Source of the DNA: Escherichia phage D6
Strand: one strand, 5' to 3'
Sequence record: NC_050154.1
DNA: 64,000 nt
Part shown: positions 7,649 to 64,000 of the stretch, in pieces
How positions within the stretch are numbered: position 1 is the stretch's first letter
Layout: each line of letters starts with the position of its first letter
Position numbers and translations under genes: made by a program
The notes under the pieces: model-generated
Told to the model about the DNA's origin: nothing
The model's input: the letters and a program-made list of their open reading frames with translations, nothing else
Database searches by the model: none

Positions 7649-10474
7649 TTACACCTGTGCGACGTTATACCATGTGCCATTGATGTATTTTTGTATTGGC
7701 CTGAAGATGGCTTCATCATCGCCATCTACTTCACCAATGATTCTTAATCCGGTAATTGCGTGTCCGGCTTTTTCATAACGACCACCACGCGCCATCAATT
7801 GAACAACACGTGTGCCAAGTCGGACATCTCTCACATAGCGTGAGTCAAAATTGCCATAATTGCCGGGAATAACTTGCGCACCACAAAGCCAGTTACCGTT
7901 ATTATCCATGTACGCCTGACCATCGGTGCCATTGGCTGTCCTTGAGTTATTAATCATGTAGATGCCAAATTGCTTGTTCCCCAGTCCACCTATCATGAAC
8001 TTTCGGTCGGCGTGATTCTGGCGAAGTAACGCCTGAGCGCTATCAGTGTTAACTATATTTTTCCCAAAGATAGCGTTGTTATCGCGCATCTGAATCCACA
8101 TACCATTACTGCTGTTAATAGCAAAACGGTCTGAAAGTGTCTCCCCTGAAACATTAAGACCACGTCCCATCGAAACAGCGCCAGTAGCGTTATTAATCCA
8201 TAATGGCCTTAATCCGTTATAAGTCCCCATGTTGTCACCGGAGTTTGTCAACATGAAGTATGTATTTGAACCATCATTACGAATAAAGAATCCGTAATTA
8301 CCATAAGCAATACGTAGGCCGTTTGCTGATTTTGATATGACTTCGCCATTTACAATGGCATTGACAAGAACATACAAAGCATCCCATTTAAGATTCATCA
8401 GGTCTTTTGTTGTGGTACTTTGTTTGCTTCTCCATTTGAAATATTCATTGCCGTTGTCGCCTGTCTCAAACCACATGTATGAATCAGTATCGCTGTCGGC
8501 ATCATTTTTAAAACCAATCTTCGCCCAGTCAGTATTCCGAATCCAGGCAAGGATTGAGTCGTTTTCAAAAGTAAGTCCACCGGACAAGGTATCGCCTGTC
8601 TTTTGAACCGCGTTATCAGCCTTGTTTACCGTTTCCTGTAGATTTAAATCTTCCGCCGTTAGCTCAATATTTTTAGAACCGTCAAACGAGACGCCGTTGA
8701 TAGTACATGCTATCTGCAATTTGGTCGCTGTAGCCGCATTACCAGAGGTGTCCTGATTCCCTTTGGCATTGACGCCGGGAACTGAATCTTTTGACGTATA
8801 GATCTGTGCCCACTCGGACCATGCCGCAGCAGTGCTATCTCTTTTGGATCGAATGAAAGCAGGTGCATGAGCGCCATTTGTGCCACTCCAGCCAATGAAT
8901 AACTCACCTTCGCCAGCAGCGGTGGCACCTTTAAGGTGAAGCACATTGCCATAGGGGGAAGGGTAGCCATTGTTGTATGCCTCATACATCTGCAATCCAG
9001 TAGCAGCACCTTGCGTTGTACCGGTAAGCGCAGTAACGCGTCCTCTAGACGTAATTGTTGGTATCGAAATGTTCGTAGAACCATCGAACCTGACGCCATT
9101 AATGTTTATGGCTGTTTTTAATTTCGTCGCGGTATCGGCGTTCCCTGTCAGCGCCCCGGTGATCCCGCCGTTGAAAGTCTGGCGTGCACTCCACGTGTTA
9201 GCCGTGCTCAACAGGGGGATCTTTTCACCGCTGGTACCGAGTTCTCTTAAACCAAGGTATTGGATAACGGCCAGTGTGCTTGTTTTAGCCAGAATATCGC
9301 GACCGACTGACGTTAAATCAGTCTGCGCTACCGTATCCTTACCGGTGAAATAAGGCAGTTTGTTTGCACCAGTCGCAAGGCCAGCGAGCGCGGTTAAAGT
9401 TGCATCCAGAGGCTGTTTGCCTGCCAGCGCATTTGTCATTGTTGTCGCAAAGTTCGGGTCATTACCAAGTGCTGCGGCAAGCTCATTCAGGGTATCAAGA
9501 GCTTCTGGTGATGAACCAACCAATGCGGATATGGCAGCTCTTACATAAGCGGTCGTAGCAATCTGCGTGTTATTCGTACCCTGTGCAGCGGTAGGCGCAG
9601 TAGGTATTCCCGTTAATGCAGGACTTGCTAAAGGAGCTTTAAGAGCCAGAGCATTGTTGATAGTTGTGCTGAAATTCGGGTCGTTATTGATCGCAGCCGC
9701 TATTTCTTTCAGCGTGTCCATCGTTCCCGGAGCACCATTGATAAGCGCATTTATAGCAGCATAGACAAAGGCCGCATTTGCGATCTGTGTGTTGTTTGTA
9801 CCGGGTTCAGGTGTCGGCGAAGTCGGCGTACCTGACAGATGCGGACTATCGAGCGGAGCTTTTGTATCAACCAAATCATGGAGAGTTTTGACAGCCAGAG
9901 GTGTAGCCGCTTTTCTTTCTTCTGTACTGCTTATTTCATTAGAGAATTCGACACCAACAGCACGGTTAACCCGGTATTTAAGCACAATCATTTCTTTAGT
10001 CACAGCCGTTGCGCCGTTAGGCACGATAACTCGACATAATTCAATTTGATTCTGCCCAATAGTATTGTCCGTACGCGCGTAAATTCTTGCAGCACTGACA
10101 GAAGATGCGCTATCTACCTGTGTCGTTTTTACACCATGTTCAAAATTGGCTTCCAGCACAATAATGTTGGTAGCCCCAGCCTTTACCGAGACAGTCACAT
10201 CTTCTATTTGCTGAACGGATATCTGAACATTATTTACATCTACTGAAGCAGCCCCTTTACCTTCTGAGTTTTCAGAAGTTATACGAACACTCAACCCTGT
10301 GCCGGGAACTGGTTCAAATCCACAGTAAAAGCCAGGCAAAACAATATTTTTAAGTTTTCTGTTAAGAGCCGAACTACTATAGAGTTCGAAATATTGAACA
10401 TCAGCAAGCAAAGGCTGTGAGACACCAGAGGATAGTGTCATTATGTTGTTCGTTTTATCAGCCCCCATAATCAA
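7649..10474 (-). CDS. tail fiber protein S (constant N-terminal part fused to the currently selected variable part)
   Basis: 941 aa; Gly/Ala/Thr-rich repeats; contains the inverted-repeat segment and the cix site mid-gene. Confidence 0.9.
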   Translation of the reverse strand: MIMGADKTNNIMTLSSGVSQPLLADVQYFELYSSSALNRKLKNIVLPGFYCGFEPVPGTGLSVRITSENSEGKGAASVDVNNVQISVQQIEDVTVSVKAGATNIIVLEANFEHGVKTTQVDSASSVSAARIYARTDNTIGQNQIELCRVIVPNGATAVTKEMIVLKYRVNRAVGVEFSNEISSTEERKAATPLAVKTLHDLVDTKAPLDSPHLSGTPTSPTPEPGTNNTQIANAAFVYAAINALINGAPGTMDTLKEIAAAINNDPNFSTTINNALALKAPLASPALTGIPTAPTAAQGTNNTQIATTAYVRAAISALVGSSPEALDTLNELAAALGNDPNFATTMTNALAGKQPLDATLTALAGLATGANKLPYFTGKDTVAQTDLTSVGRDILAKTSTLAVIQYLGLRELGTSGEKIPLLSTANTWSARQTFNGGITGALTGNADTATKLKTAININGVRFDGSTNISIPTITSRGRVTALTGTTQGAATGLQMYEAYNNGYPSPYGNVLHLKGATAAGEGELFIGWSGTNGAHAPAFIRSKRDSTAAAWSEWAQIYTSKDSVPGVNAKGNQDTSGNAATATKLQIACTINGVSFDGSKNIELTAEDLNLQETVNKADNAVQKTGDTLSGGLTFENDSILAWIRNTDWAKIGFKNDADSDTDSYMWFETGDNGNEYFKWRSKQSTTTKDLMNLKWDALYVLVNAIVNGEVISKSANGLRIAYGNYGFFIRNDGSNTYFMLTNSGDNMGTYNGLRPLWINNATGAVSMGRGLNVSGETLSDRFAINSSNGMWIQMRDNNAIFGKNIVNTDSAQALLRQNHADRKFMIGGLGNKQFGIYMINNSRTANGTDGQAYMDNNGNWLCGAQVIPGNYGNFDSRYVRDVRLGTRVVQLMARGGRYEKAGHAITGLRIIGEVDGDDEAIFRPIQKYINGTWYNVAQV
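8641..9250. repeat. ~0.6 kb inverted repeat, right copy
   Basis: Reverse complement of 4997..5597. Confidence 0.8.
9242..9267. other. cix-type crossover site, right, inside the tail fiber gene
   Basis: TTCTCTTAAACCAAGGTATTGGATAA; shares a half-site with the left site. Confidence 0.7.
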
Positions 10475-32765: not shown

Positions 32766-34427
32766 ATGAGTGAGGCAGAAGCCCGCCCGACTAACTTTAT
32801 TCGTCAGATCATCGATGAAGATCTGGCCAGTGGTAAGCACACCACAGTACATACCCGTTTCCCGCCGGAACCGAATGGCTATCTGCATATTGGTCATGCG
32901 AAATCTATCTGCCTGAACTTCGGGATCGCCCAGGACTATAAAGGCCAGTGCAACCTGCGTTTCGACGACACTAACCCGGTAAAAGAAGATATCGAGTACG
33001 TCGAGTCGATTAAAAACGACGTTGAATGGTTAGGTTTTCACTGGTCTGGCAACATCCGTTACTCCTCCGATTATTTTGACAAACTCCATGCCTATGCTGT
33101 TGAACTGATCAACAAAGGCCTGGCGTATGTTGACGAACTGACGCCGGAACAGATCCGCGAATACCGCGGCACCCTGACGCAGCCGGGTAAAAATAGCCCG
33201 TACCGCGATCGCAGCGTTGAAGAGAACCTGGCGCTGTTCGAAAAAATGCGTGCCGGTGGTTTTGAAGAAGGTAAAGCCTGCCTGCGTGCGAAAATCGATA
33301 TGGCTTCGCCGTTTATCGTGATGCGCGACCCGGTGCTGTACCGCATTAAGTTTGCTGAACACCACCAGACTGGCAACAAGTGGTGCATCTACCCGATGTA
33401 CGACTTCACCCACTGCATCAGCGATGCGCTGGAAGGTATTACGCACTCTCTGTGTACGCTTGAGTTCCAGGACAACCGTCGTCTGTATGACTGGGTACTG
33501 GACAACATCACCATTCCTGTTCACCCGCGCCAGTACGAATTCTCGCGCCTGAATCTGGAATACACTGTGATGTCCAAGCGTAAGCTGAACCTGCTGGTGA
33601 CCGACAAGCACGTTGAAGGCTGGGATGACCCGCGTATGCCGACCATTTCCGGTCTGCGTCGTCGTGGTTACACTGCTGCTTCTATTCGTGAGTTCTGCAA
33701 ACGCATCGGCGTGACCAAGCAGGACAACACCATTGAGATGGCGTCGTTGGAATCCTGCATCCGTGAAGATCTCAACGAAAATGCGCCGCGCGCAATGGCG
33801 GTTATCGATCCGGTGAAACTGGTTATCGAAAACTATCAGGGCGAAGGCGAAATGGTCACCATGCCGAACCATCCGAACAAACCGGAAATGGGGAGCCGTC
33901 AGGTGCCGTTTAGCGGTGAGATTTGGATTGATCGCGCCGATTTCCGCGAAGAAGCTAACAAGCAGTACAAACGTCTGGTGCTGGGTAAAGAAGTGCGTCT
34001 GCGTAATGCTTATGTGATTAAGGCAGAACGCGTCGAGAAAGATGCCGAAGGTAATATCACCACCATCTTCTGTACTTATGACGCCGATACCTTAAGCAAA
34101 GATCCGGCAGATGGTCGTAAAGTCAAAGGTGTTATTCACTGGGTGAGCGCGGCACATGCGCAGCCGGTTGAAATCCGTTTGTATGACCGTCTGTTCAGCG
34201 TGCCGAACCCAGGTGCTGCGGATGATTTCCTGTCGGTGATTAACCCGGAATCGCTGGTGATCAAACAGGGCTTTGCTGAACCGTCGCTGAAAGATGCGGT
34301 TGCGGGTAAAGCATTCCAGTTTGAGCGTGAAGGTTACTTCTGCCTCGACAGCCGCCATTCTACGGCGGAAAAACCGGTATTTAACCGCACCGTTGGGCTG
34401 CGTGATACCTGGGCGAAGTTAGGTTAA
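32766..34427 (+). CDS. glnS: glutaminyl-tRNA synthetase, host-like
   Basis: 553 aa with class I HIGH motif and VMSKR (KMSKS) motif; full-length match to E. coli GlnRS as I recall it; the upstream leader ends in TTTACGCTTTGAGGAATCCACA as in the E. coli glnS leader. Confidence 0.97.
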
Positions 34428-36950: not shown

Positions 36951-36992
36951 CATTTGTGTTAGAAAATACATATTAATTATCTAACACAAATG
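36951..36992. promoter_or_regulatory. palindromic pair of candidate C1-type operators just upstream of hrdC
   Basis: CATTTGTGTTAGAAAATACATATTAATTATCTAACACAAATG. Confidence 0.55.
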
Positions 36993-46862: not shown

Positions 46863-47804
46863 TTAACTAACAATCCAGTCCGTAGCAACAACATCCTCTG
46901 GAGCTAAATCAATCGCATGGATTTTCCCATCCCGGATAGTGCGCCAGTGCTTTCGTGATCCACCTTCGGGCCACACCCATACACCTTCAGGCCAGGATGC
47001 TCGACGGCATACGATTGCATAGCCTGTTTTAATCCTCTCTCTGGCGGTATGCAACGACAGGTTTGCCTTTGGACTTTCAGGCACAGGATGGTGGATTGCC
47101 TGAAACATCCCCATCTTTGGATGATACCAGCGTTTATTGCGTGGTTCTGCCTCCGACATCACCTGCTTAAAGGCTTTCCGGAAGGGGGCCAGGGCCACAA
47201 TGGAGCGTTGCGCAAGCAAACCATCGGGAGTTAAAAACTCATGCGTATCGGTGGGAATCCGGTAAGCGTTAACCAGGTTTCGGCATTTGGCTTCAGTCAG
47301 GCCACATTTCGCCGCCAGCTGGCGGTAGCCAATGTAGCCTTCCGGAATATTGCCTTTCTTTATTTGCTCGAGTGTTTCAGCGACCATCGATACTTGTGCT
47401 GATACCTCGGCTACCTGGGCATTTACGGCGTTGATCCGGCGTTCATGCTCAAGATGCATTTGCGCCATTTCAGCCAGAATTTCGGCTTTTGATTTTAACT
47501 GTACCCGGGCATTCTCCAGTTCGCGCCAGCGGTCCACCAGCCGGGCGGTGAATTCGGGAGAGAGCTGCGCGACGACAACAATGCTGTCTCGTTTGCCTTG
47601 CTCGCCTTCGAAGACATAGACCGGATCTTTGACAACCTTCCCTAAGTTATTGATTCTTTCGACGAACTCATTTTGAGTTTCTCGGATGACACCGCTAGCC
47701 ATCATATTGCGAATGGTACGTAAAACATTGCCGTGACGACTACCAACTAACTCTGCAATATCTAGGCTACTCATTGTCGCTTTTTGAGAGATGGACAGAT
47801 TCAT
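46863..47804 (-). CDS. antirepressor-like protein (Rha/Ant-type N-terminus)
   Basis: 313 aa; N-terminal SSLDIAELVGSRHGNVLRTIRNM; sits downstream of an icd-like ORF and a c4-like RNA. Confidence 0.55.
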   Translation of the reverse strand: MNLSISQKATMSSLDIAELVGSRHGNVLRTIRNMMASGVIRETQNEFVERINNLGKVVKDPVYVFEGEQGKRDSIVVVAQLSPEFTARLVDRWRELENARVQLKSKAEILAEMAQMHLEHERRINAVNAQVAEVSAQVSMVAETLEQIKKGNIPEGYIGYRQLAAKCGLTEAKCRNLVNAYRIPTDTHEFLTPDGLLAQRSIVALAPFRKAFKQVMSEAEPRNKRWYHPKMGMFQAIHHPVPESPKANLSLHTARERIKTGYAIVCRRASWPEGVWVWPEGGSRKHWRTIRDGKIHAIDLAPEDVVATDWIVS

Positions 47805-48019: not shown

Positions 48020-48079
48020 ATTGGCAGCCTCCTTTTGCTAATTTAAGGAGCTACCGCGTGAGGTCTCAATCTCAATGGC

Positions 48080-48155
48080 GGTAGCACTGGCTGGGTTGAG
48101 ACTACCGGCGCAAAAGGGAACCGGCCTGCCTTTCGGCAGCCCAGCCAGCACTACC
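48080..48155 (-). ncRNA. candidate c4-type antisense regulatory RNA (~76 nt)
   Basis: 16-bp closing stem with two G-U pairs enclosing a GAAA-looped hairpin; a loop GUCUCAA is complementary to two UUGAGAC sites, one just before the icd-like RBS. Confidence 0.4.
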
Positions 48156-48206
48156 ATTGATCTTGGAGCTATACGCTACGTATGGCTGTGCGATGGCATG
48201 ACACAA

Positions 48207-48228
48207 AAAAAGACGCTTTCGGCGTCTG
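48207..48228 (-). terminator. intrinsic terminator upstream of the c4-like RNA
   Basis: Minus strand GACGCCGAAAGCGTC followed by TTTTTTT. Confidence 0.6.
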
Positions 48229-48817
48229 TGTCGCCTTTTGCATTATCCGGGGTCTCAATCCCGGCACCCGTTTTTCTAAGGTGCCGTAGAAATATACCCC
48301 ACGATAATGCCAGGGCGCAACAGTCAGTATTTTATGCTTTGGCGGATTTCTTCCGGGCTTGCTTGCAGGCGTAGGCCATTGCTTTAGCTTTCACTTCATC
48401 CAGCTTCCCGGTGATCACTTCTTTTCCGAGAGTGACAAACCAGTCATAGCAACCGCCAGTGATGTTCTGGATTTGAAAGTTGAGGTAGCGAACTGTCATT
48501 TTGACCCCCCCAGCGCGAGTAAAGAATGCAGATTATCGCGTGAGTGGCGGACAACGAGTGATGGGAAAAGACAGTAGCTGTTCATAGTGTAGTGACTCCT
48601 TGCTTTCGGAGCCGCCATCGACTGTTCCACGGTCTGGTGGCGGCGCAATAAAGGCTGGAACACCGTGAGTCAACGGGGGCTTTTCAGCCACCTATATTGC
48701 ACCGCCATAGGTATAGCGGCGGCAATAATACGAAAAACTAAACAGTTTGTCTCAAAAAGTTGACCGGTGTGCCAATCGGTAGTGAATGTACATCGGAGAA
48801 ATTTACAATTCAACTTA

Positions 48818-49409: not shown

Positions 49410-49472
49410 GATGGCTGCCTCTTACTTTTCAGCGATTTTTCTATGATTGATCAAAATGATTAGATATTCAAA

Positions 49473-49493
49473 ATTGATTTTCTAACACAAAAC
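49473..49493. promoter_or_regulatory. candidate C1-type operator in a divergent promoter region
   Basis: ATTGATTTTCTAACACAAAAC. Confidence 0.55.
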
Positions 49494-49681
49494 ATTAATA
49501 TCATTCCTGATAACTGTTTGGAGGACATGATGCTTATAGCTTTAAGTGCGATCCACCAGCCATCTGTGAATGAGATTGGCCTGTTCTATGTGTTGTTTTT
49601 CGGGGCGTTGGCGCTACTTGAGCTTGGTATTGAGCTTTTCGCAGTGCTTATGTTTTGCGTCACGATTTTGGGGAAATTTTG

Positions 49682-50293
49682 ATGGTGAAACGTGTTTTGA
49701 AAATTTACATCGCGGGGCCGATGACTGGTTATCCAGATTACAACCGTGCTGCGTTTAATGCGAAAGCGAGCGAGCTGATGGCTGAAGGGCATATCGTTCT
49801 GAATCCAGCTGTGTTACCTGGTGGCCTTTGTCAGAGTGAATACATGGATATTTGCCTGGCAATGGTGCGTTCTGCTGATGCGATCTACTTGCTCAATCGA
49901 TGGGAGGAATCGATTGGTGCTCGTGCAGAGCACGCGCTGGCTGAAAAGCTGGGGCTGACTGTAATTTATGAGTCACCAACCAACATTGAATGCCAGGTTG
50001 CTCCGCATATTTACCGGGAACTGGTCAATGCACTGTGTGATATCGCTGCTGTATATCACGGCACAGAACAGCTTCGTGAGCGTTTAGCCCATACCATTTC
50101 CTATTACCTGTCTTTATCTCATGAGCACAAGCTCCGCCAGAAGGTAATGATCAAATTTATCATGAGGTTATCGAAATCCCTGGCAAACGCCGATCCAAAG
50201 AATCCATTACCGAAAGAGGCAATGAATTACCTGAAGTCCTGCAACGTTGTTTCTGAAGATGGCGTGCTTTTGGTTAGAAGGAGTTCTGCGTGA
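49682..50293 (+). CDS. DUF4406-like protein with C-terminal extension
   Basis: KIYIAGPMTGYPDYNRAAF N-terminus; C-terminal HIYRELVNALCD...GTEQLRERL module also present in the 56427 ORF. Confidence 0.6.
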   Translation: MVKRVLKIYIAGPMTGYPDYNRAAFNAKASELMAEGHIVLNPAVLPGGLCQSEYMDICLAMVRSADAIYLLNRWEESIGARAEHALAEKLGLTVIYESPTNIECQVAPHIYRELVNALCDIAAVYHGTEQLRERLAHTISYYLSLSHEHKLRQKVMIKFIMRLSKSLANADPKNPLPKEAMNYLKSCNVVSEDGVLLVRRSSA

Positions 50294-50607
50294 GCTGGCG
50301 GGGATGGGGAAGGGCAGAAATCATGATACTCCGCCAGTGCGCCGGGACTATGACAGTCGAGAGTATTGGGAGGCTGATCGGGCGTACCGGTAGTGCTGTC
50401 AGAACCAAAGCGCGGCAACTGCGGATCTGCATGATTCTGAAAGGAGACTTTCACCCGTCAGCCAAATACCGGCAGGGCGATATAGAACTGGCACGGCAAC
50501 TTCATCGGTGTGGTGTTCCCCGCCGTGAGATCGCGGAAAAACTCGAAATGCCCCTAGGCATGATTAATCAGTACGTTTATTTCGAAAGGAGAGTGTATGA
50601 AGTCTGA
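50290..50607 (+). CDS. putative HTH DNA-binding protein
   Basis: 105-aa ORF coupled to the upstream gene. Confidence 0.5.
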   Translation: MSWRGWGRAEIMILRQCAGTMTVESIGRLIGRTGSAVRTKARQLRICMILKGDFHPSAKYRQGDIELARQLHRCGVPRREIAEKLEMPLGMINQYVYFERRVYEV

Positions 50608-50953
50608 AGGTTTAACGCCCGCACAACTGGCAGAGCGTAACGCTGAGTATGTAACGGAAATTTCCCGACTTGAGAAAGCGTGTGCTGCGCTGGCGGCGGA
50701 GAATGCTGGGCTGAAACATGCAATGGCTGTAACTCTTGAGCATGTGTCGGTCACGGATGCAGGTCAGGCCGGAGTTGCTGCAATGATTATCAACGATGCC
50801 CTGCACCACAGCGAAACTCCAGCCACCGATGATTTTCTGGCTGAAGTACGTGCGCAGGGCGTGGAGATGTTTGCTGAGTGCGCATACACACTTGAACATC
50901 ATGATCACGCAGTAGCTTTTGCCGCTGAGCTTCGTACAGGAAATAAACAGTGA
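50597..50953 (+). CDS. hypothetical protein (paralogous module family)
   Basis: 118 aa; LAEVRAQGVEMFAE module similar to [13 protein letters not shown] in the next ORF. Confidence 0.5.
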   Translation: MKSEGLTPAQLAERNAEYVTEISRLEKACAALAAENAGLKHAMAVTLEHVSVTDAGQAGVAAMIINDALHHSETPATDDFLAEVRAQGVEMFAECAYTLEHHDHAVAFAAELRTGNKQ

Positions 50954-51618
50954 ATGAGATTTACTACCTGACGTTACGTGAACGTTATTCACCAAAACCA
51001 GCGCCTAAATGCTCTGTTTGTGGCGAGGAAATGTCAATGCAGCGCATATCTGGATCACATGTTGTTTATGCCTGTTCTGGCATGGAGGATGACGGATGCT
51101 TCAAAACTGGACGAACTTATGCTGACGAGCATTACAAAAAATCGCGCATAACAGTAGTTGATGATAGCGATCCTGATGTGATTGAACTGCTGGACGAGAA
51201 CGTGGAGATGGCTCTAACGCTTGAGAATCTGCGTGTTGAGCTGGAAGCCGCTAAAAAGTGTATTGCAGAGCTGGAAAGCAATTGCGGGGCGCTGGTGGCG
51301 GAATGCCAAAACAAAAAAGCAGCACTTGAGGAAATTCTTAGCCATCTCCCAATTAATCATCCAGATATAGACATCGCATGTGTAGCGAACATAGCTCATA
51401 ACAAATTAGGCGAGGCGAAAAGCACTACATCTGAAGCTTACCTTGTTGAAATACAGGCTCAGGGATTGGAGGCATTCGCTTTGACGATGCGCGATACCGG
51501 AGATGATCCATTTTTTGATTCCGTTGCTTCTGCTTGCGCGGATGCGGCTGACAGGTTCGCAGCCCTGCTTCGTAAAGGACAATCCTGCCTGCGCCCGAAC
51601 TTTGAAGGGAAAAGATGA
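50950..51618 (+). CDS. hypothetical protein with N-terminal Cys cluster and coiled coil
   Basis: 222-aa ORF, overlapping stop/start. Confidence 0.5.
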
Positions 51619-51938
51619 TGACCACATCGCATTCTGCAATTACCCAAGAAAAAGCCTTCAACATACTCGAACGACTAGAGACGCTCGCTACGGAGGAGGA
51701 TATATCCCCGGAGAAACTGGTTGAGTTCAGCCGTGTGATATTGCGTCGCAAGAACGATATGGAGCGGCTGACATCTGGCGCTCCATCCTTATCAGTCAGT
51801 CCAGCGCTTTATTGCAGCTTCTGCAACAAATCCCAGCACACCGTTAAAAAGTTAATTGCTGGGGACGCCGTTTTCATCTGCGACGAGTGTGTGGATGCGT
51901 GCAACAACGTTATCCGGGAAGAGGGCTTAAGAAAATGA
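51615..51938 (+). CDS. small protein with ClpX-type N-terminal zinc-binding domain at its C-terminus
   Basis: [39 protein letters not shown], near-colinear with the E. coli ClpX zinc finger as recalled. Confidence 0.75.
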
Positions 51939-52029
51939 ATGACGAATTTGACCGCTTTGAATTTTAACGGGGCGCACCGTCGCCCCGCATGGGAGGGGGA
52001 TACGATGAAAAAAGATGAGGCAGAATCCA

Positions 52030-52305
52030 ATGAATATCGACACGACAATAACGATCGATACGCTCCTAAATTCCGGTCTGGCACTTCTCGGTTGGTTTTA
52101 CATCATGTTCAGTGCGGGGAAGTGGGCGGCCTCTGTTTTTCTAAAGCAGTGGGGAAAGCGCCGCAAACAGGAAAAACGCCAGAAAGCGTTGGAGGCGTTC
52201 TATGACGCATTTGAACTTAGCCGCATTGAACCAGGCACAACAGCCAGGATAGCGACAAAAGGCGACCTGATGATAGTGATGTTCAGACAGGAGAAAACCA
52301 AATGA
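52030..52305 (+). CDS. small membrane protein
   Basis: Hydrophobic LALLGWFYIMFSAGKWAASVF then basic tail; coupled to the next gene. Confidence 0.45.
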   Translation: MNIDTTITIDTLLNSGLALLGWFYIMFSAGKWAASVFLKQWGKRRKQEKRQKALEAFYDAFELSRIEPGTTARIATKGDLMIVMFRQEKTK

Positions 52306-52526
52306 CAGAACAGACGATGACAAATCGCGAACTTGTTGATGCCGCGATTGAACTTGCTGGCGATTTTTATTCCATGATGGGGTACACGCATCGCCCAGGC
52401 TTCAAATATTGGGAGTCTCCGCACCCGCAAGAGCAACGGGTATTTCAAATGGCCTGTCGCGCTTTTGAAGTTATTCGCGGTTCTGATGTGATGGACGCGG
52501 TTGCTGATTTGGAGGATGAAGAGTGA
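52302..52526 (+). CDS. hypothetical protein
   Basis: 74-aa ORF. Confidence 0.5.
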   Translation: MTEQTMTNRELVDAAIELAGDFYSMMGYTHRPGFKYWESPHPQEQRVFQMACRAFEVIRGSDVMDAVADLEDEE

Positions 52527-52834
52527 ACACAATTAAAGAAATGCCGGTAGAACGTGATGAATATGGCTGCTGGACACATCCGGAGTATGAAAAGTTTTGC
52601 GCAGGTCGTGAATATATATCCACTGAGGAATTTGACGCCTGGATGAAGGAAAATAATCTTCAGTGGACTATTCGCAGTATGGATGAAGATGATTTTGATC
52701 TGGACGCAGCTGGTCCCGATATTGCCGTCTGGGAACCGGAGCGACCAGAGGGTGAAGGCTGGTTTGTTGGCTCTATTCATGACACTGAAGATGGTCCAGT
52801 TTGTATCTGGCTGCGGGAGAAGGTTGCCGCATGA
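52523..52834 (+). CDS. hypothetical protein
   Basis: 103-aa ORF. Confidence 0.5.
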
Positions 52835-53523
52835 TCCAGACTATGCATGAAGTGAATTTATATAGCCGTATTGATGGTTCTGGCTACAGAAACATATGGG
52901 TTGTTGGTGATCTGCATGGTTGCTACACCAGACTGATGTCCGAACTCCATCGTGTGGATTTTGACCCGGCGCAGGATTTACTGATATCTGTTGGCGACCT
53001 TATCGATCGCGGTACTGAAAATGTCGAATGTCTGGAACTATTGCAGATGCCCTGGTTCAGGGCAGTAATGGGGAACCATGAGCGGTTGATGCTTGATGCG
53101 TTAAGTCCTGATGGCAACGTGAATAACTGGCTAATGAATGGCGGACAATGGTTCTTCATGCTGGACACTGATCAGGAAATATTAGCCTGGGCGCTGGTGG
53201 AGCTGGTAAAGCGTCTGCCATATATCATTGAGTTGAACACCGGGCATGAAACTATCGTTATAGCCCATGCCGACTATCCAGGTGGAGAGTACCAGTTCGG
53301 TAAGGATGTGTCGCTTTTTGATGTTGTCTGGTCGCGCAGTCGCGTCGGTGATTCGATAGATGGCATTGGTGGAGAAATCACAGGCGCAGATCGCTTTATC
53401 TTTGGGCACACACCGGTACGAAGACCAAAAGCATACTGGAATCAGCACTACATAGACACGGGCGCGGTTTTTTGCGGAAATCTGACGCTAATGCAGGTGA
53501 AGGGAGGGCAGCTTAAAGTCTGA
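52831..53523 (+). CDS. Ser/Thr protein phosphatase, lambda-phosphatase/PrpA family
   Basis: GDLHGC, GDLIDRG, GNHE metallophosphatase motifs; colinear with E. coli PrpA as recalled. Confidence 0.9.
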
Positions 53524-53550
53524 TCAAATCATTTACGCACTCAAAATTAC

Positions 53551-53580
53551 GTTAGAACATTGATTTTAGTTTTCTAACAT
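53551..53580. promoter_or_regulatory. inverted pair of candidate C1-type operator half-sites
   Basis: GTTAGAACATTGATTTTAGTTTTCTAACAT, ~40 bp upstream of the 53622 ATG. Confidence 0.5.
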
Positions 53581-53621
53581 ATTATTTTACCGCTCGGAAC
53601 AAAACAGAGTCGGTATACATT

Positions 53622-54617
53622 ATGAGTGCAATAATCACACCTCATTTCGTAAACGGAGCTGGTGTGGCTGTCTTTCCGGTAGACAAGCCCACCAGTAACT
53701 ACATTGGCGCAGGTCGCCGTTTCATTATCTCCCCACTTCCGCGTGAACAGGCTGAAAACACGCCAGATGGCGTAGTGGATCTGAATTATTCGCTGGTTGC
53801 CAACCAGTCTCTGAAACCGTTTTTTCAAAGCGAGCGCGTATTTAACGCGTTAGGCGGTGAAGATTCGCTTGTTCATTGGGTAAGTTCCAATATCCACGAT
53901 TGCCAGGCGCACGATAAGCGCGATTGTAGCCACCAGCTAACCACTCATTTCTATAACGGCTCTGCCGTTCGCCTGTGCTGGAAGCATGATGCGGAATACA
54001 TGATGAAGGGGTACAGCAAGCTGGACGACCAGTTATCCCTGAATCGCGCCAACTGGGTTATGAACTGGGCTGCGAGCGAGTTAAAACTACCGCCAGAACG
54101 CGATCTGAGCATGGTTGAACTCACTTTTTGGGCCATTCGCCGGAATCTGAAAGATGAGCTGCCAGATGAAGCCGGTCGCATTGCATTTTGTCAGCCAAAA
54201 ACTGAAATCCCTACCGGTACGCTGAAAGAATCAGATATCACTTGGGAGCACAGTACCCGCGAGCTGGTGGACATAACCGCAGAGCAGATCGTCAACCTGT
54301 CTGTAGATGAGGATTCCGGCCTGCTTTATATGCGCCGACCAAAAGTGGTCCTCGGTAAAAGCCCAGCTTATCTCCGGTTTGTGGTTTCTCGTCCGTGCAT
54401 CGGATGCGGTGGCAAAGTTAACCACCCGTTCATGTACCGCGTCCGCTCGTTAAACGAACACGACCGCTGGGCTGTTCCTCTTTGCGATGACTGCGCCAGA
54501 AGCGCAGAAAACGATGTCCGGGCATGGGAAAAAGCACATGGCATACGACTTTATGTAGCCGCTAACCAGCTTTTCGACTTCGCCATCGAGCGCGGAGTGA
54601 TCACGTTTAATAACTGA
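53622..54617 (+). CDS. hypothetical protein with C-terminal zinc-ribbon-like Cys motifs
   Basis: 331 aa; PCIGCGG...PLCDDC. Confidence 0.5.
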   Translation: MSAIITPHFVNGAGVAVFPVDKPTSNYIGAGRRFIISPLPREQAENTPDGVVDLNYSLVANQSLKPFFQSERVFNALGGEDSLVHWVSSNIHDCQAHDKRDCSHQLTTHFYNGSAVRLCWKHDAEYMMKGYSKLDDQLSLNRANWVMNWAASELKLPPERDLSMVELTFWAIRRNLKDELPDEAGRIAFCQPKTEIPTGTLKESDITWEHSTRELVDITAEQIVNLSVDEDSGLLYMRRPKVVLGKSPAYLRFVVSRPCIGCGGKVNHPFMYRVRSLNEHDRWAVPLCDDCARSAENDVRAWEKAHGIRLYVAANQLFDFAIERGVITFNN

Positions 54618-54630
54618 TGGGAACAACGCA

Positions 54631-54930
54631 ATGAGTCAAGGTAACGGTGACGGAGCTGCAAAGTGCAGAATCTCCACTTGTTTGATTAATGGCAGAAAAA
54701 TAGAACCGTGCGCGGCGCTGGCACAATCTCTGGAGCAGGATGCTGAATACACGACGCGAAAAGGCCTGCTGAAATACAAAGTCTATAACCATGAATTAAT
54801 TCATTCACAGGACCTGATCATGCTGCGGTCTGGTGAATTTTCTAAATCGCCTATTCGAGTTTCATTTTGCCCATTCTGTGGTGAAAGTCTGAAAACGTGG
54901 GAAGCGGAGGCAACCAGTGAGCAAGATTGA
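54631..54930 (+). CDS. hypothetical zinc-ribbon protein
   Basis: 99 aa; C-x4-C ... CPFCG. Confidence 0.45.
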   Translation: MSQGNGDGAAKCRISTCLINGRKIEPCAALAQSLEQDAEYTTRKGLLKYKVYNHELIHSQDLIMLRSGEFSKSPIRVSFCPFCGESLKTWEAEATSEQD

Positions 54931-55564
54931 TTATCAAAAGCTTCGTGAAATCGCTGAAAAAACAAAAATTGCTGGTGAAGCACCTGTAATGCCTTTCGAT
55001 CAGCGAATTAATGCGCTTAACGATTTTATGAAGCACTTTTCGCCAGATATCGCGCTGGCATTGTTGGATGAACGGGAAAGAAACCTGCAATACATCAAAA
55101 GCCGCGATCAGGAGAACGAGGATATTGCGCTAACGGTAGGGAAGCTGCGTGTTGAGCTGGAAGCAGCAGAGAACAACCTTATTGATAGTGAATGCCATGT
55201 TGCTGAACTGGAAGAAGCGCTACGCGATAAGCAGGCGTTACTTGAAGCATCAGAAAAGCGCATAGCAGAACTGGAAGCACGGGAAATAAAACCAGCCAAA
55301 GGTGAAGTTCTTGTCGTTGTTTCTGGTTTTACTGGTTGCGGAAAAAGCGCCATCGCCGGGGAAATAGAAATCGCGATGAAGGCTATTGGTGTACCGGTTA
55401 AGTGGACTAATGGCGATGCAGAAAAGCGCATGACTGGCGCTGACTGGCTGACAGCGATTGAGATGTACAAACCAACAGTGCGCATCGTGGAAGTTAATGT
55501 GCCACGCGTCGCTGGCATTTGCATCAAAGGAGACGCAGGAGAGCAAAACGATGAAAAACCGTAA
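54917..55564 (+). CDS. hypothetical coiled-coil protein (paralogous module family)
   Basis: [14 protein letters not shown] resembles [14 protein letters not shown] in the 50950 ORF. Confidence 0.5.
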   Translation: MSKIDYQKLREIAEKTKIAGEAPVMPFDQRINALNDFMKHFSPDIALALLDERERNLQYIKSRDQENEDIALTVGKLRVELEAAENNLIDSECHVAELEEALRDKQALLEASEKRIAELEAREIKPAKGEVLVVVSGFTGCGKSAIAGEIEIAMKAIGVPVKWTNGDAEKRMTGADWLTAIEMYKPTVRIVEVNVPRVAGICIKGDAGEQNDEKP

Positions 55565-55742
55565 AGCTAAGATGCTTATCTCCCGTGTATACAGACTTTG
55601 CTATCCCAGCCAGTGGTTGAGAGTTAGCAATCGTCGTGTGGTGTTGTTTTCATTTTCTGGAATTGCCAGAGAGGGAGTCCGAGATAAGGGCAGCGCGGCG
55701 CAAAACCGCTGGAAAAACCACCTGCGCACTAAAGGAGACTGA
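55551..55742 (+). CDS. hypothetical small basic protein
   Basis: RBS-supported ATG inside a longer track ORF. Confidence 0.4.
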   Translation: MKNRKAKMLISRVYRLCYPSQWLRVSNRRVVLFSFSGIAREGVRDKGSAAQNRWKNHLRTKGD

Positions 55743-55743
55743 T

Positions 55744-55959
55744 ATGGCTATTGCCGCAAGTTACACCATGCATCTCTACTGTGATTGTCGCCAGTGTACA
55801 AATGGTAAATATCAAACGCCAGACTTCGGTGAGTATATCGGTACGTCATGGGCTGGCTGTGCAAAAGAGGCGCGTAAGGATGGCTGGCGAATAAGCGCCG
55901 ACAAAACGCGTGCTTTTGCGCCAGGTCATAAAATTTTGAGGATCAACAAAGGAGAGTGA
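55744..55959 (+). CDS. hypothetical Cys-rich small protein
   Basis: AAGGAG RBS before MAIAASYTMHLYCDCRQC. Confidence 0.45.
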   Translation: MAIAASYTMHLYCDCRQCTNGKYQTPDFGEYIGTSWAGCAKEARKDGWRISADKTRAFAPGHKILRINKGE

Positions 55960-55960
55960 T

Positions 55961-56416
55961 GTGCCGACATTATTCAGAAAAGAATATCCGCGAAGAAGCA
56001 GGGCTATAGAACTCTTGTTTCTCATTCTGTTTATCGTGCTGCTGATACCGATATCCTCAATATTAGTGACTGTTCTAGTGGGGAAAGCATTTGAACCGTT
56101 AGTTGACCTGTATATCGATATAGTGTGTAAACCATTCGGGGCACTACACAATAAAATTAACCCATACAAGGAAACTGATATGGCAACTTTGACAAAAGAA
56201 GAGAGTTTTACCAAAAAACAAATCGCCGAGGCAAAAATCCTCGACAATAACGGAACCTACTTTATCAACGGCTCCATCCTTCCTGTTTATATCAATGAAA
56301 ATGGCGACACTTACCTTATTGAAGAGTACGAAAAAGGCAAGCCGAGCGAACACCTCATTAAAGACTTATTCGCCGACGGCGTTCTTGTTGCTGTTAATCC
56401 GATTGGCTACAACTGA
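55961..56416 (+). CDS. AT-rich hypothetical protein with N-terminal TM segment (possibly two short genes)
   Basis: GTG start after GGAG; an internal Met at MATLTKEE could begin a second product. Confidence 0.45.
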   Translation: MPTLFRKEYPRRSRAIELLFLILFIVLLIPISSILVTVLVGKAFEPLVDLYIDIVCKPFGALHNKINPYKETDMATLTKEESFTKKQIAEAKILDNNGTYFINGSILPVYINENGDTYLIEEYEKGKPSEHLIKDLFADGVLVAVNPIGYN

Positions 56417-56426
56417 GGCATAAATT

Positions 56427-57509
56427 ATGACCGTTTTAACCGACAAAGAACTGATTAAAGAAATCAAAGAGCGCATAGGCAGTCTGGACGTTCGAGACAA
56501 TATTGAGCGCCGTGCTTATGAAATTGCGCTGGCATCGCTGGAAGCAGAGCCTGTTGGTGAGTTTTATGAATACAAACCGGGTGACTGGTATCAGCGTTCG
56601 GTCGGGGATAAAGCACCAAAGTGGGTGCCGTTATATGCTACTCCGCCAGTTCGGGAATTGCAGGCTGATGTCGCGCAAGCAATTGAAAATCTCAAGCAGA
56701 AGTTAGTGGAATGCAATCGCTATAACTACTGCGCAGATGCCGTTAAAGGTGTTGAGGATGCCAGCCGCGTCTTGGCACTCCAAAATCAAAATATGTCAGC
56801 GCCGATAACGCCGGAGGCCATTGAAAACGCAATTGAATACATCCGCAGTATCGCTTTTCACATCGATGAAGACGATTACCACGGCAAACATATTGCGTAT
56901 TTCATGCGACAAGCATTGGCCTGGCTGGAAGGGCATTCATGCAGCAACGACAGACTGGGTAAAGCCGATAATCAACCAGTACGCGGCAACCAGGCTGCCG
57001 AATCCAATCGCGGTAATGAGTGGACCGGCAATCCTGATATTGATAACGCCATCATCATGCTCGATCGCATAGATACGCTGGAAAATTGCGATGATGACCG
57101 TATTGAGGCTGTTAAGGCCGTTTTGCGTAGACTGGCTGGCAACTATCCGGATATTCCGGATAGTTCGGTGCCAGCGCCAGGAAAGGGCGTCACCGGTGAA
57201 CGTATCCGAATTAAGCCGCATGTTTATCGCGAACTGGTTAACCGTCTCCACGATACAGCGATCAAGAGTGCGGGCACCCAGCAATTACGAGAAAGAATTA
57301 GCCGTGTTTTGGGCGACGTTATTACACCAGATCATCATAAACAAGCCGAGAAAAGTGGCTTGGAAAGGTGTCACCTTGAGGCGGCATTAAACATTAAGCC
57401 GGGGCATACGCTTGGCATTATTGATGCACTATTGGTTCATAAGATGGCCAGGGCTTTATTGCCGCTGGTGGCTGAAAAGCATGAGGCGGACCATGCCAAC
57501 GAAAGCTGA
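56427..57509 (+). CDS. hypothetical protein, mosaic with the 49682 ORF
   Basis: 360 aa; shares the HVYRELVNRLHD...GTQQLRERI module. Confidence 0.55.
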   Translation: MTVLTDKELIKEIKERIGSLDVRDNIERRAYEIALASLEAEPVGEFYEYKPGDWYQRSVGDKAPKWVPLYATPPVRELQADVAQAIENLKQKLVECNRYNYCADAVKGVEDASRVLALQNQNMSAPITPEAIENAIEYIRSIAFHIDEDDYHGKHIAYFMRQALAWLEGHSCSNDRLGKADNQPVRGNQAAESNRGNEWTGNPDIDNAIIMLDRIDTLENCDDDRIEAVKAVLRRLAGNYPDIPDSSVPAPGKGVTGERIRIKPHVYRELVNRLHDTAIKSAGTQQLRERISRVLGDVITPDHHKQAEKSGLERCHLEAALNIKPGHTLGIIDALLVHKMARALLPLVAEKHEADHANES

Positions 57510-57645
57510 ATTACAGGTGCGCGTAGATGAGCTTGAAAAAGAGAACGCGAGCCTCAAAAAAATGCTGTCGCGGGATTATCAGGCAAATTATTGCCAGAAG
57601 AACTGCCACCAGCAGATATACCTGATCGAGTGTCCTGGTGGATGA
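57493..57645 (+). CDS. hypothetical small protein
   Basis: Start chosen at MPTKAELQVRVDELEKENASLKK. Confidence 0.4.
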   Translation: MPTKAELQVRVDELEKENASLKKMLSRDYQANYCQKNCHQQIYLIECPGG

Positions 57646-57751
57646 AGTATTTCCGTGCACCGTGGGAGGCGTTTTGGTGCTACGACCATCGCAGATGGTG
57701 TGATGAACTTGATAGCAGTTTTCCCTACTTTGCGGAAGGGAACACCTGCCC

Positions 57752-58102
57752 TCAATGCAGGGGATAGCATTTGACGAAATCGATCACCCTATCCTGAACT
57801 TCAGAAAGAAGGTCTTTTTCACGCGCCAGGACGTCAGGATATTGACGTTCTGGCCTTACTAGATGCCGGAGCTTCCCATTAAGCAGAATGGCCTCAGAAA
57901 ACACTTTTACGCTGTGCTTTATCCCCTCTGTTTCACTTTTCAGCGTCAAAATAAAGCGCAATTGCTTATTAGCCTGATTCAGATTCAATACACGAATTTG
58001 CAGTTCGTCTATGCTGTTTCGCAATGGGATTGATGCCACCACACTGGTGCAGTCTCTGATTGTCTGAATTGAACGGCTAACATTGAGAACGTTATTGTGC
58101 AT
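57752..58102 (-). CDS. hypothetical protein
   Basis: 116-aa ORF, divergent from the hot/humD promoter region. Confidence 0.45.
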   Translation of the reverse strand: MHNNVLNVSRSIQTIRDCTSVVASIPLRNSIDELQIRVLNLNQANKQLRFILTLKSETEGIKHSVKVFSEAILLNGKLRHLVRPERQYPDVLAREKDLLSEVQDRVIDFVKCYPLH

Positions 58103-62786: not shown

Positions 62787-62807
62787 TGTGTTAGAAATTT
62801 AATTTAT
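62787..62807. promoter_or_regulatory. candidate C1-type operator, overlapping the recombinase stop
   Basis: TGTGTTAGAAATTTAATTTAT. Confidence 0.5.
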
Positions 62808-63832
62808 GAATCCATCAAGCGGCTATTAGCCCCCACAGACACACCGCCACGGCGCAGATACCGCATAAGTGTTTCCGGTTTCTTCCAGGTTCCTTCCTGC
62901 ATAATCTCCACCATAGACACCTGCTTTTCAGCCATATCGATAGCGGCCCCGACACGAGCACTATGCCCGGTCCACGTCCGGTATCTCCCTTTGTTTGGCG
63001 TGGCATCCCTTTTATTCAGCAACACCCAGGCGTCGCTGAATATTTTCTCCATTGCAGGTGCAGTAAGGGGCGTTGTCGTAATCCTGGCCTTATTGCTACG
63101 GTGTATCGGCGGGAACAGCACCGCGTCAGGATGTTCACGAAGCCCGGAAACATCCAGCCAGTCATTCAGCACAGCAGTAGTGCGACGGGAAAGCACCTTA
63201 TCAAGCCCGGCGGCGGTCGTTATTGTCTTCGTGTGTGAAATATGTAGCGTGACAGTGTCACCTGTTTGGTCCAGATCTCCTACACGAATACGCGAGATTT
63301 CCGACATACGCATCAGCGTATTGTATGCAACAAAGAGAAAAGCCCGGTTGCGCAGGTCCACCAGCCGTTCTGACCTGGACAACAGGACGTCGAGCAGTTT
63401 CAGGTCGTCCCATCGCAGCGGTATAGCCTGGCCTGTTCGTTCGCCTTTTTCCGTTGCCGCTTCGCGCCGGATACGCCGCATAGCCAGAGAAACACTTTTA
63501 TCATCCGAAAGTGGCGGAAGGCCACAATGAGAAAGCAGCATGTTAAGCATGGCGTAGTGCTTATCAATGGTGGTCGAAGCCAGATCGGCATCATGCAACT
63601 GAAGAAAATACTCGCGGGCCATTTCTGGTGAGATCGGAAACCAGGCAAGCTGGCGAGCGTGACACCAGCGCGCCCAGGAATGAAACACCAACCGGAGGTC
63701 GCGCAGAGTATTCGGCGCATAAGCACCCTGATCATTCATGAACCGCATAAAGTTTTCTGCGGCTTCCTGGTACTCTTTGCCAATGTTGCGCAGAAAACCA
63801 CCGGAACTGCCAGAGATAATTAATTCACTCAT
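62804..63832 (-). CDS. Cre-family tyrosine recombinase (Dre-like)
   Basis: 342 aa colinear with P1 Cre at reduced identity: HSWARWCHARQLAWFP, SVSLAMRRIRRE, GHSARVGAAIDMA; rox-like half-site follows. Confidence 0.9.
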   Translation of the reverse strand: MSELIISGSSGGFLRNIGKEYQEAAENFMRFMNDQGAYAPNTLRDLRLVFHSWARWCHARQLAWFPISPEMAREYFLQLHDADLASTTIDKHYAMLNMLLSHCGLPPLSDDKSVSLAMRRIRREAATEKGERTGQAIPLRWDDLKLLDVLLSRSERLVDLRNRAFLFVAYNTLMRMSEISRIRVGDLDQTGDTVTLHISHTKTITTAAGLDKVLSRRTTAVLNDWLDVSGLREHPDAVLFPPIHRSNKARITTTPLTAPAMEKIFSDAWVLLNKRDATPNKGRYRTWTGHSARVGAAIDMAEKQVSMVEIMQEGTWKKPETLMRYLRRGGVSVGANSRLMDS

Positions 63833-63984
63833 GAAACCATTTCACCTCTATATACAGATGACGCTACGCGAAAAATATAAAAATGACAGGGTAGCTATAA
63901 GTTAATTTTCAAAATACAAGCCTTTGATTGGAGGTACGTATTTTCAGTGATGTCAATACTGTTCATCTACACATGATTATAGCC

Positions 63985-64000
63985 TAACTTTAAATAATGC
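63985..64000. other. partial rox-type recombination site (first 16 bp, cut by window end)
   Basis: TAACTTTAAATAATGC equals the first 16 bp of rox (TAACTTTAAATAATGCCAATTATTTAAAGTTA) as I recall it. Confidence 0.6.

Follow-up and report, generated by a model that had tools for sequence, protein, structure and literature searches.

A variable accessory region of a D6-like plasmid prophage, probably assembled from a shared temperate-phage gene pool by in-frame module recombination

What kind of element carries the cluster of small plus-strand genes at 49682 to 57645 in the DNA of Escherichia phage D6 (NC_050154.1), and how did several of its proteins come to share short sequence modules? The stretch analysed, here called the window, comprises 64,000 nucleotides (nt) of this record, and all coordinates refer to it. 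An initial annotation had described the cluster as a lambdoid-like accessory block built from shuffled paralogous modules. Our reading is that the block would be the variable early accessory region of a D6-like plasmid prophage, a counterpart of the P1 ppp/pmg region, with two operons behind their own operators, genes drawn from a common pool, and modules exchanged by in-frame recombination; for this reading as a whole we estimate a probability of roughly 0.78. What the sequences show directly is the gene content, the homology of the modules, the mosaic breakpoints, the over-representation of the motif, and its conservation.

The block is almost identical to part of a group of ~90-kb non-mobilizable plasmids of Escherichia coli and Salmonella, including CP011430 (pYU39_89), CP035549, CP032492, pYU07-18_89, and pSL26_91, with 97.6% to 99.0% identity over 86% to 88% of its length (CP011430, 99.0% over 86%). 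Plasmids of the pYU39_89 type are D6-like plasmid prophages (PMC6799933). Elsewhere, the window encodes a Rep3/RepB initiator, ParM, RdgC, a HumD-like S24 peptidase, Doc, a Cre-like recombinase, the Ant anti-repressor, the Ref nuclease, and a glutaminyl-tRNA synthetase, as well as a C4 antisense RNA. At the nucleotide level, the window has minimal similarity to P1 outside a tail-fibre segment and the accessory block. By its close match to pYU39_89 and the backbone genes that the two have in common, the sequence belongs with the D6-like plasmid prophages, in the P1 supercluster of myoviruses; it does not come from a lambdoid phage.

Eighteen plus-strand genes (g00 to g17; 49527 to 57645) make up the block, or 19 if the fused DUF4014-like and g15 parts are split, and with the putative promoter and a terminator-like hairpin it extends from about 49474 to 57680. 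The tight coupling noted initially holds, as 10 of the 17 junctions overlap (by ATGA or GTGA, or by 11 to 17 nt) and the other gaps measure 1 to 29 nt, save 76 nt between g05 and g06 and 140 nt before g10, the latter holding the second predicted operator. The initial count of about 20 genes does not stand, nor does the start at 49682, since the true start lies upstream, at a putative promoter near 49474 and a small gene at 49527 to 49682. The genes would form two translationally coupled operons, g00 to g09 and g10 to g17, each beginning at a weak putative sigma-70-like promoter overlapped by a predicted repressor site of the lineage, bivalent at the second promoter.

Each operon stands behind a copy of an asymmetric motif of 16 to 17 bp, AATTArTTTTCTAACA, that is dispersed over the element. 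Its exact 10-mer core, TTTTCTAACA, is present five times in the window against 0.19 occurrences expected, a number reached by 0 of 100 shuffles. The motif sites in the window (27043, 36957 [-]/36971 [+], 48821 [-], 49472, 53550 [-]/53564 [+], and 62789 [-]) are intergenic; three sites are 30-nt inverted pairs, and more copies lie in the part of a sister plasmid outside the window. In the pairs at 36957 to 36986 and 53550 to 53579, inverted copies overlap by 2 nt to give the 30-nt unit. The former pair lies beside rdgC, and a further intergenic copy is found at 45037. Ahead of operon 1, site A (49472 to 49487, +; AATTGATTTTCTAACA) has one mismatch to AATTARTTTTCTAACA and overlaps a putative -35 hexamer, TTGATT (49474 to 49479), separated by a 16-nt spacer from the putative -10 hexamer TAATAT (49496 to 49501). 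The site is conserved in four sister plasmids, where the inverted left half, TGTTAGAT, is intact and the 30-nt geometry (49458 to 49487) is complete. Ahead of operon 2, the bivalent site B consists of an inverted pair (53550 to 53565, -; 53564 to 53579, +) over a putative -35 hexamer TTGATT (53560 to 53565); it is identical in the four sister plasmids and has the same geometry as the pair at 36957 to 36986. Both block sites are kept in these plasmids next to differing neighbour genes. The operator-like motifs first noticed at 49473 and 53551 coincide with sites A and B.

One half of the motif, AAATTAATT, is identical to that of P1 Oppp, AAATTAATTAGTGCATG. The 17-bp P1 C1 operator consensus, ATTGCTCTAATAAATTT, has no match within three mismatches, and P1 immunity specificity is therefore rejected. 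The motifs look like sites of a distant C1-type repressor of this lineage rather than P1's own operator, and their dispersed copies outline a candidate regulon of that repressor. In sister plasmid NZ_CP122910, a gene for a 345-amino-acid (aa) protein lies next to pacB, which is the position of c1 in P1; the protein can be aligned colinearly with P1 C1 along 240 aa (21% identity; E value, 2e-8), and a copy of the motif precedes the start codon of the gene by ~15 nt. Such a repressor would silence both operons in the lysogen, and both would be switched on early, upon infection or induction; this control and timing are suggested by the motif statistics, by conservation, and by the parallel with P1. 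The D6 operator motif may already be given in published D6 or P1 genome papers.

Between conserved anchors, the block is mosaic. The sister plasmids keep g00 to g02, g06 to g10, and everything from the end of g16 onwards, and they differ in slot A (g03 to g05) and slot B (g11 to g16). In PLSDB, the anchor g06 to g10 (52015 to 54617) is present at a coverage of at least 80% in 107 plasmids, slot A of the window in 3, and slot B in 8. Two sister plasmids are without 50647 to 51638 and have the first ~16 codons of g03 fused in frame to g05. This g03 leader is common to the slot occupants, and the sequence MKSEGLTPxQLAE also heads Ea22-like proteins elsewhere.

Inside genes, breakpoints can be followed in the Ead/Ea22-like genes g04 (50950 to 51618, +) and g12 (54917 to 55564, +), whose products score 43.6 and 79.9 bits, respectively, against PF13935 (gathering cut-off, 27). 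Among the best 120 homologues of g04, 107 share its N-terminal domain, 21 its C-terminal domain, and 9 both. Alignments with the C-terminal sharers begin at residue 83, and those with the N-terminal sharers end at about residues 110 to 135; these limits define residues 83 to 110 as a common joint. The protein alignment contains at least six unrelated N-terminal domains on one coiled coil and C-terminal domain. The similarity of g12 to two sister plasmids ends at 55163, the end of a DNA repeat that it shares with g04, and several chromosomal matches in a spread sample end at 55163 to 55184. That breakpoints fall at the Ea22 coiled-coil joint and at junctions composed of a ribosome site, a stop codon, and a start codon, and that recombination there was in frame, is well supported by these sequence comparisons. 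New combinations would arise by in-frame recombination at short conserved stretches of three kinds: the joint at the coiled coil, the initial ~16 codons of a gene that follows an overlapping stop/start, and the junctions of ribosome site, stop, and start. The occasional loss of a stop codon at a junction would produce fusions.

Several points weigh against this reading. The left half of site A is degenerate in the window, and a sigma-70 consensus scan flagged neither promoter, the hexamers read by eye matching at 8 of 12 positions, below the threshold. The similarity of the 345-aa protein to P1 C1 is weak (NCBIfam phage_rep_C1; E value, 9e-6; 25 bits against a cut-off of 500), and the c1 homologue starts ~230 nt past the end of the window, its presence being deduced from sister plasmids of 98% to 99% identity. 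The apparent clustering of breakpoints derives from inspection of four sister loci, of 120 protein matches, and of a spread sample of BLAST rows. Neither the monomer models nor the fold searches pointed to a function.

The block could instead be an island of cargo expressed in the lysogen, of the moron or the defence and counter-defence kind, its variability being due to diversifying selection on interactions with host or phage rather than to neutral shuffling of early genes. Accessory hotspots of P1-like phage-plasmids are known (PMC9603915), some of the small proteins look host directed (for example, the phosphatase and a ClpX-finger protein that is a decoy candidate), and Ea22 favours lysogeny in lambda and Stx phages (PMC7093339). 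However, the PADLOC defence models, a set without anti-defence models, matched none of the 18 block proteins or the adjoining minus-strand open reading frame (ORF) at 57752 to 58102. Both operons lie behind predicted operators of the repressor type, as do their P1 counterparts, and strong internal promoters or flanking terminators typical of morons were absent from a consensus scan. We regard a cargo island as unlikely and retain the variable early accessory region as the preferred reading.

The origin of the shared modules was examined by all-against-all BLASTP of the block proteins with composition-corrected E values and by Smith-Waterman scores expressed as z against 1000 shuffles. Three pairs rank best: g01 residues 100 to 154 with g16 residues 256 to 309 (42% identity; E value, 1e-9; z, 14.2), g03 residues 22 to 93 with g04 residues 105 to 177 (35%; 2e-7; 13.1), and g04 residues 83 to 127 with g12 residues 66 to 110 (42%; 6e-5; 7.5). 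All remaining pairs have a z of at most 5.3. Similarity at the DNA level was seen only for the g04/g12 module (51196 to 51251 versus 55112 to 55167; 84% over 56 nt). The modules proposed in the initial annotation are, judged by these alignments, genuine homologous sub-domains. The g04/g12 module is the joint of the N-terminal domain and the coiled coil in the Ea22 family, the g03/g04 module (AQGxExFA...LRKG) one of the alternative, predicted helical Ea22 C-terminal domains, and the g01/g16 module a predicted helix-loop-helix hairpin of ~40 residues, the core of P1 PmgU, that behaves as an autonomous add-on domain. As each module recurs with different partners in databases and sister plasmids, the domain shuffling proposed initially is borne out as well.

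If the modules were recent paralogues, they would have arisen by duplication and divergence within the block. The adjacent genes g03 and g04 do have a coiled coil and C-terminal domain in common, and two Ead_Ea22 genes stand in one block. However, the copies are only 35% to 42% identical at the protein level and 84% identical over just 56 nt of DNA, whereas closer relatives exist elsewhere, at 95.5% in a sister plasmid for g04, 93% in an Stx phage for g12, and 94.7% in P1 for the g16 module, and other combinations are seen in sister plasmids. Because the internal copies are so distant and their relatives elsewhere have at least 90% nucleotide identity, the modules would have been drawn separately from a shared pool. 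Recent paralogy in situ is very improbable. That the similarities reflect chance or composition deserves practically no credence: although the g04/g12 match lies in a coiled coil, where heptads or small-protein bias can inflate scores, and weak coiled-coil Pfam matches are present, such an origin is ruled out by the composition-corrected E values, the shuffles, the Pfam scores of g04 and g12 above the Ead_Ea22 gathering cut-off, and a hairpin profile with 991 matching clusters, in which P, H, R, E, L, V, N, and G..QLRE hardly vary.

From where would the genes have been drawn? Between exo and xis, Stx phage P32 carries a TraR-like gene, Ea22, genes of 189, 216, 219, and 288 nt, and EaA. The genes g12, g13, g14, and g15L (the DUF4014-like part fused to g15) together with the beginning of g16, follow this array colinearly at 81% to 93% nucleotide identity (g12 versus P32 ea22, 93% over 55048 to 55270), and pieces of the array also occur in the epsilon15-like phage phiV10. 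Pieces of 54917 to 56416 are present at an identity of at least 80% in 2108 of 5426 complete E. coli genomes, at 2636 chromosomal and 518 plasmid places, and a single genome has at least 80% of the segment together. By sequence, the block genes are non-structural and belong to the lambdoid exo-xis/nin pool of enterobacterial temperate phages, from which the lambdoid exo-xis "ea" genes, the nin-type phosphatase, and the DUF4406, DUF968, and ClpX-finger proteins would have come. The description "lambdoid-like" is therefore apt for the gene content, including the colinear Ea22...EaA array, but not for the host element, which is a plasmid prophage of the D6/P1 type.

The junctions of the array are themselves conserved. 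The sequence AAAGGAGAGTGATATGGC, comprising ribosome site, stop, and start, occurs three times with a spacing of 217/219 nt and is kept in the Stx phage, phiV10, and a sister plasmid; g13 (55551 to 55742, +), g14 (55744 to 55959, +), and g15L (55961 to 56416, +) are joined by repeated AAGGAGAnTGAtATG junctions. At the g15L junction, one A of AAGGAAAACTGAAATG, which is intact in P32, has been lost, so that the DUF4014-like ORF reads in frame into g15, giving an ORF of 151 aa. In RefSeq, only the distal 78 codons of 55961 to 56416 are annotated, and the first part is a pseudogene in a sister plasmid. The products of g13 and g14 are small and of the exo-xis type, and g13, g14, and g15L all have PHROG matches.

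Other parts of the block are related to P1, in which the order is [Oppp] pmgN-pmgO-pmgP-ppp-pmgQ, [OpmgRa/b] pmgR-pmgS-pap, and [OpmgT] pmgT-pmgU-pmgV, followed by upfM-upfN-upfO, hot, lxr, humD, phd, and doc. The g09 gene has 89% nucleotide identity to P1 ppp, and the pmgU frame is 94.7% nucleotide identical to that of P1, residues 248 to 348 of g16 being 93% identical to PmgU. On the right flank, a hot remnant, humD, phd, and doc follow in the order seen in P1, and synteny thus extends over ppp, pmgU, hot, humD, phd, and doc. A direct comparison of g16 with P1 PmgT gave no similarity; the common DNA lies in the pmgU frame. The P1 region pmgT to humD is among the eight hypervariable regions of P1-like phage-plasmids (PMC9603915). 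In the P1 stretch compared (8672 to 9741), the pmgT and pmgU genes lie in different frames with an overlap of 196 nt, PmgU consists essentially of the hairpin module and a tail, and database relatives include fusions of ASCH/DUF3850 to that module; given this overlap and these fusions, pmgT and pmgU may be one frameshifted gene.

The hairpin module (HxYRELVN...) lies at about residues 108 to 150 of g01 (50003 to 50131, +), followed by a C-terminal tail, and at about residues 264 to 306 of g16 (57216 to 57344, +). Searching cluster representatives at 50% identity with a two-sequence profile gave 991 clusters at an E value of ≤1e-3 and 136 at ≤1e-10, almost all unnamed. The module stands at any position in proteins of 50 to 463 aa and also alone, in proteins of 50 to 67 aa, and P, H, R, E, L, V, N, L, D, A, G, Q, L, R, and E are its nearly invariant positions. 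Among the best 150 of the 991 matches, nine different Pfam partners were found, most members having no Pfam domain: DUF551 (five proteins), Ead_Ea22 (four), DUF3850/ASCH (three plus two), DUF5490 (two), and, once each, dATP/dGTP pyrophosphohydrolase, DUF4406, Rv2179c-like exoribonuclease, and DUF1382; in this set, no Pfam model covered the hairpin itself. AlphaFold2 predicted from a 25-sequence alignment a helix at 14 to 30, a loop, and a helix at 37 to 48, with a predicted local distance difference test (pLDDT) score of 85 to 92 in the core, and a fold search with the model gave no PDB match at an E value of ≤0.001. As a two-helix hairpin of ~40 residues is unlikely to be stable alone, a role in oligomerisation or docking is suggested for it, as for the coiled coils, and the effector domains would serve host modulation. 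The heads that carry it include DUF4406 (nucleoside-transferase-like), dATP/dGTP pyrophosphohydrolase, ASCH/DUF3850, Rv2179c-like exoribonuclease, Ead_Ea22, and DUF551. Tentatively, and with the odds rather against it, the PHxYRELVN...GTQQLRE hairpin could be an unclassified autonomous mini-domain, a docking or oligomerisation tag that brings these varied heads to one shared partner of host or phage origin; temperate enterobacterial phages would then exchange effectors on a fixed adaptor.

The tripartite Ea22 architecture of g04 is evident in the partial coverage of its 120 homologues, in the protein alignment, and in a predicted long helix followed by a helical domain. Its parts are a Cys4 N-terminal domain, the joint (residues 83 to 110, with the DNA repeat at 51196 to 51251, +), the coiled coil, and a C-terminal domain with AQGxExFA (residues 105 to 177) that is predicted to be all helical; in g12, the joint comprises residues 66 to 84 (DNA repeat, 55112 to 55167, +). 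For g04 residues 100 to 222, which span the coiled coil and C-terminal domain, AlphaFold2 predicted four helices (pLDDT, 77), and the model had no PDB fold match at an E value of ≤0.001. The C-terminal domain of lambda Ea22 has been solved as a mixed alpha-beta dimer (PMC10834534). A C-terminal domain of this type was rejected for g04, as the model is all helical and without fold match, and neither g04 nor g12 matched a PDB chain. The all-helical model fits the published alternative C-terminal domains of Ea22 proteins (PMC7093339). The C-terminal K/RGE of Ea22 proteins is encoded by AAAGGAGAG or AGAGGTGAG directly before stop/start overlaps (window, 55949 to 55961; P32 stretch, 5520 to 5680), and the downstream ORF of 51 codons is unannotated in P32 and annotated in phiV10. 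From its position, the sequence encoding the K/RGE tail looks like the ribosome-binding site of a coupled downstream ORF.

The remaining genes of operon 1, all on the plus strand, are as follows. The first, g00 (49527 to 49682), encodes a hydrophobic protein of 51 aa (phrog_8890; E value, 3e-35), is annotated in sister plasmid pSL26_91, and overlaps the start of g01 by 1 nt. The g01 product (49682 to 50293) has a DUF4406 domain at residues 7 to 96 (PF14359, 116 bits; phrog_355, nucleoside 2-deoxyribosyltransferase); the other DUF4406 homologues found are mostly of 112 to 120 aa and lack the hairpin extension. A small helix-turn-helix DNA-binding protein is encoded by the anchor gene g02 (50323 to 50607; phrog_323, transcriptional regulator; E value, 8e-23) and is annotated as a DNA-binding protein in sister plasmids. 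The g03 product (50597 to 50953) has a coiled coil and C-terminal domain of the Ea22 type but lacks the N-terminal domain; it matches only the C-terminal parts of phrog_492 and phrog_368, has no Pfam match, and carries the AQGxExFA module at residues 22 to 93 (50660 to 50875). The 107-aa g05 product (51615 to 51938) has a ClpX-type C4 zinc finger (PF06689, 62.5 bits, residues 66 to 102) and matches only model residues 5 to 44 of the NCBIfam ClpX models. With the finger alone (residues 64 to 103) and no AAA+ ATPase body, it is a stand-alone finger and not ClpX. In P1, the antitoxin Phd is degraded by ClpXP. The anchors g06 (52015 to 52305; DUF4752 in Pfam), g07 (52302 to 52526; PHROG match), g08 (52523 to 52834; PHROG match), and g09 lie at the operon 1 end. 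The g09 product (52831 to 53523) is a Ser/Thr phosphatase, Ppp (PF00149 Metallophos, 59.5 bits), of the PrpA/PphA type by its metallophosphoesterase domain and its full-length match (residues 6 to 223) to the NCBIfam model PRK11439 (E value, 1.7e-82; 276.7 bits). This score is below the equivalog cut-off of 326, which makes g09 a member of the family but not PrpA/PphA itself. The annotation of P1 Ppp gives 64% identity to the lambda phosphatase, and g09 is a phosphatase of the P1 Ppp/lambda NinI type.

Operon 2, also on the plus strand, opens with g10 (53664 to 54617), which encodes a DUF968 zinc-binding protein (PF06147, 153.7 bits). By alignment, this protein is a paralogue of P1 PdcB (38% identity; E value, 2e-71), the alignment starting at PdcB residue 15. 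Given this 14-residue offset and an in-frame ATG at 53622, the RefSeq start (GTG, 53664) may be 14 codons short and the ATG the real start. The 99-aa g11 product (54631 to 54930; phrog_4030; E value, 7e-41) has CxxxxC and CxxC motifs. The 360-aa g16 product (56427 to 57509) is a mosaic protein of the EaA type with >5000 homologues of 237 to 582 aa, named Eaa prophage protein or DUF551 protein, and 13 PHROG families match separate stretches of it. The last gene, g17 (57493 to 57645), encodes a 50-aa protein resembling a coiled coil or leucine zipper (phrog_21843; E value, 9e-41), with weak bZIP-like Pfam matches below the cut-off; directly 3' of it, a consensus scan placed a terminator-like hairpin with a T run (57650 to 57680, +). 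The DUF4406 protein, the PrpA-type phosphatase, and the ClpX zinc finger named in the initial annotation were all recovered by Pfam or NCBIfam matches, along with DUF4752, DUF968, and the two Ead_Ea22 proteins, and its zinc-ribbon proteins agree with the C4 cysteine patterns, of which those in g04, g05, and g10 are clear and those in g11 and g14 possible. No NCBIfam model matched the mosaic proteins, and PDB sequence searches with g01, g04, g12, and g16 gave nothing below an E value of 1e-4 save spurious repeat matches.

Next to the block, Rfam matches on the minus strand identify a C4 antisense RNA (48074 to 48161; 76 bits) and an isrK-like RNA (48206 to 48284; 59 bits), upstream of Icd-like and Ant genes (46863 to 47804, -) and downstream of the operator copy at 48821. 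This stretch is an immunity module of the P1 immI type adjoining the block. A full-length class I glutaminyl-tRNA synthetase of 553 aa is encoded at 32766 to 34427 (+; Pfam tRNA-synt_1c; E value, 6e-130). The window stops within a lox-like site (63979 to 64000), which reads CTAACTTTAAATA-ATGCCAAT-TATTTAAAGTTAT in a sister plasmid and lies between the Cre-like gene (62804 to 63832, -) and the c1 homologue expected shortly beyond the window.

That ea-type genes are mosaic and that P1-like phage-plasmids have variable regions has been described already, and the block, a well-resolved case of what is known rather than a new system, leaves the general view of phage mosaicism unchanged. At single-base resolution, the locus reveals how temperate phages rebuild their small accessory proteins, and one gene pool serves lambdoid phages, an epsilon15-like phage, and plasmid prophages of the P1/D6 type. 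This sharing is useful for annotation because many of the "hypothetical" proteins here are composites. The locus also offers a candidate operator motif for the C1-type repressor of the D6 lineage, a simple explanation of the conserved K/RGE tail in Ea22 proteins, and a widespread helical hairpin of ~40 residues without a Pfam family, the sole element that possibly deserves follow-up.

Compared with known systems, g09 resembles lambda NinI and E. coli PrpA as a full-length family match, whereas the neighbouring nin genes are absent here, and the C-terminal domain of g04 is predicted to be all helical in contrast to the mixed alpha-beta domain of lambda Ea22. With the exo-xis region of lambda and Stx phages, the block shares the gene order (Ea22-like, three or four genes for proteins of ~65 to 95 aa, and EaA-like), the ribosome-site/stop/start junctions, and the tripartite Ea22 with a variable C-terminal domain (PMC7093339, PMC10834534). 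However, it resides in a circular plasmid prophage with myovirus genes of the P1 type, has no int, xis, or exo nearby, and lies behind a predicted C1-type operator, whereas lambda and Stx phages use pL/N. The C1-controlled operons of P1 are alike in the right-side neighbourhood (hot, lxr, humD, phd, and doc), in ppp and pmgU at 89% to 95% nucleotide identity, and in the operator-promoter ahead of each operon, which is putative in the block. They differ in most genes, the block having no pmgO, pmgP, pmgQ, pmgR, pmgS, or pap; in the left flank, which consists of ref and the immI-like region here and of baseplate genes in P1; and in the operator, the P1 consensus being unmatched and another motif with the AAATTAATT half being present instead. 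With pYU39_89 and the other D6-like plasmid prophages, the element shares most of the block at 99% identity and the backbone of RepB, ParM, HigBA, Phd/Doc, Cre/lox, and a putative c1. The members differ in what slot A (g03-g04-g05) and part of slot B contain, and the slot combination of the window is found in few records.

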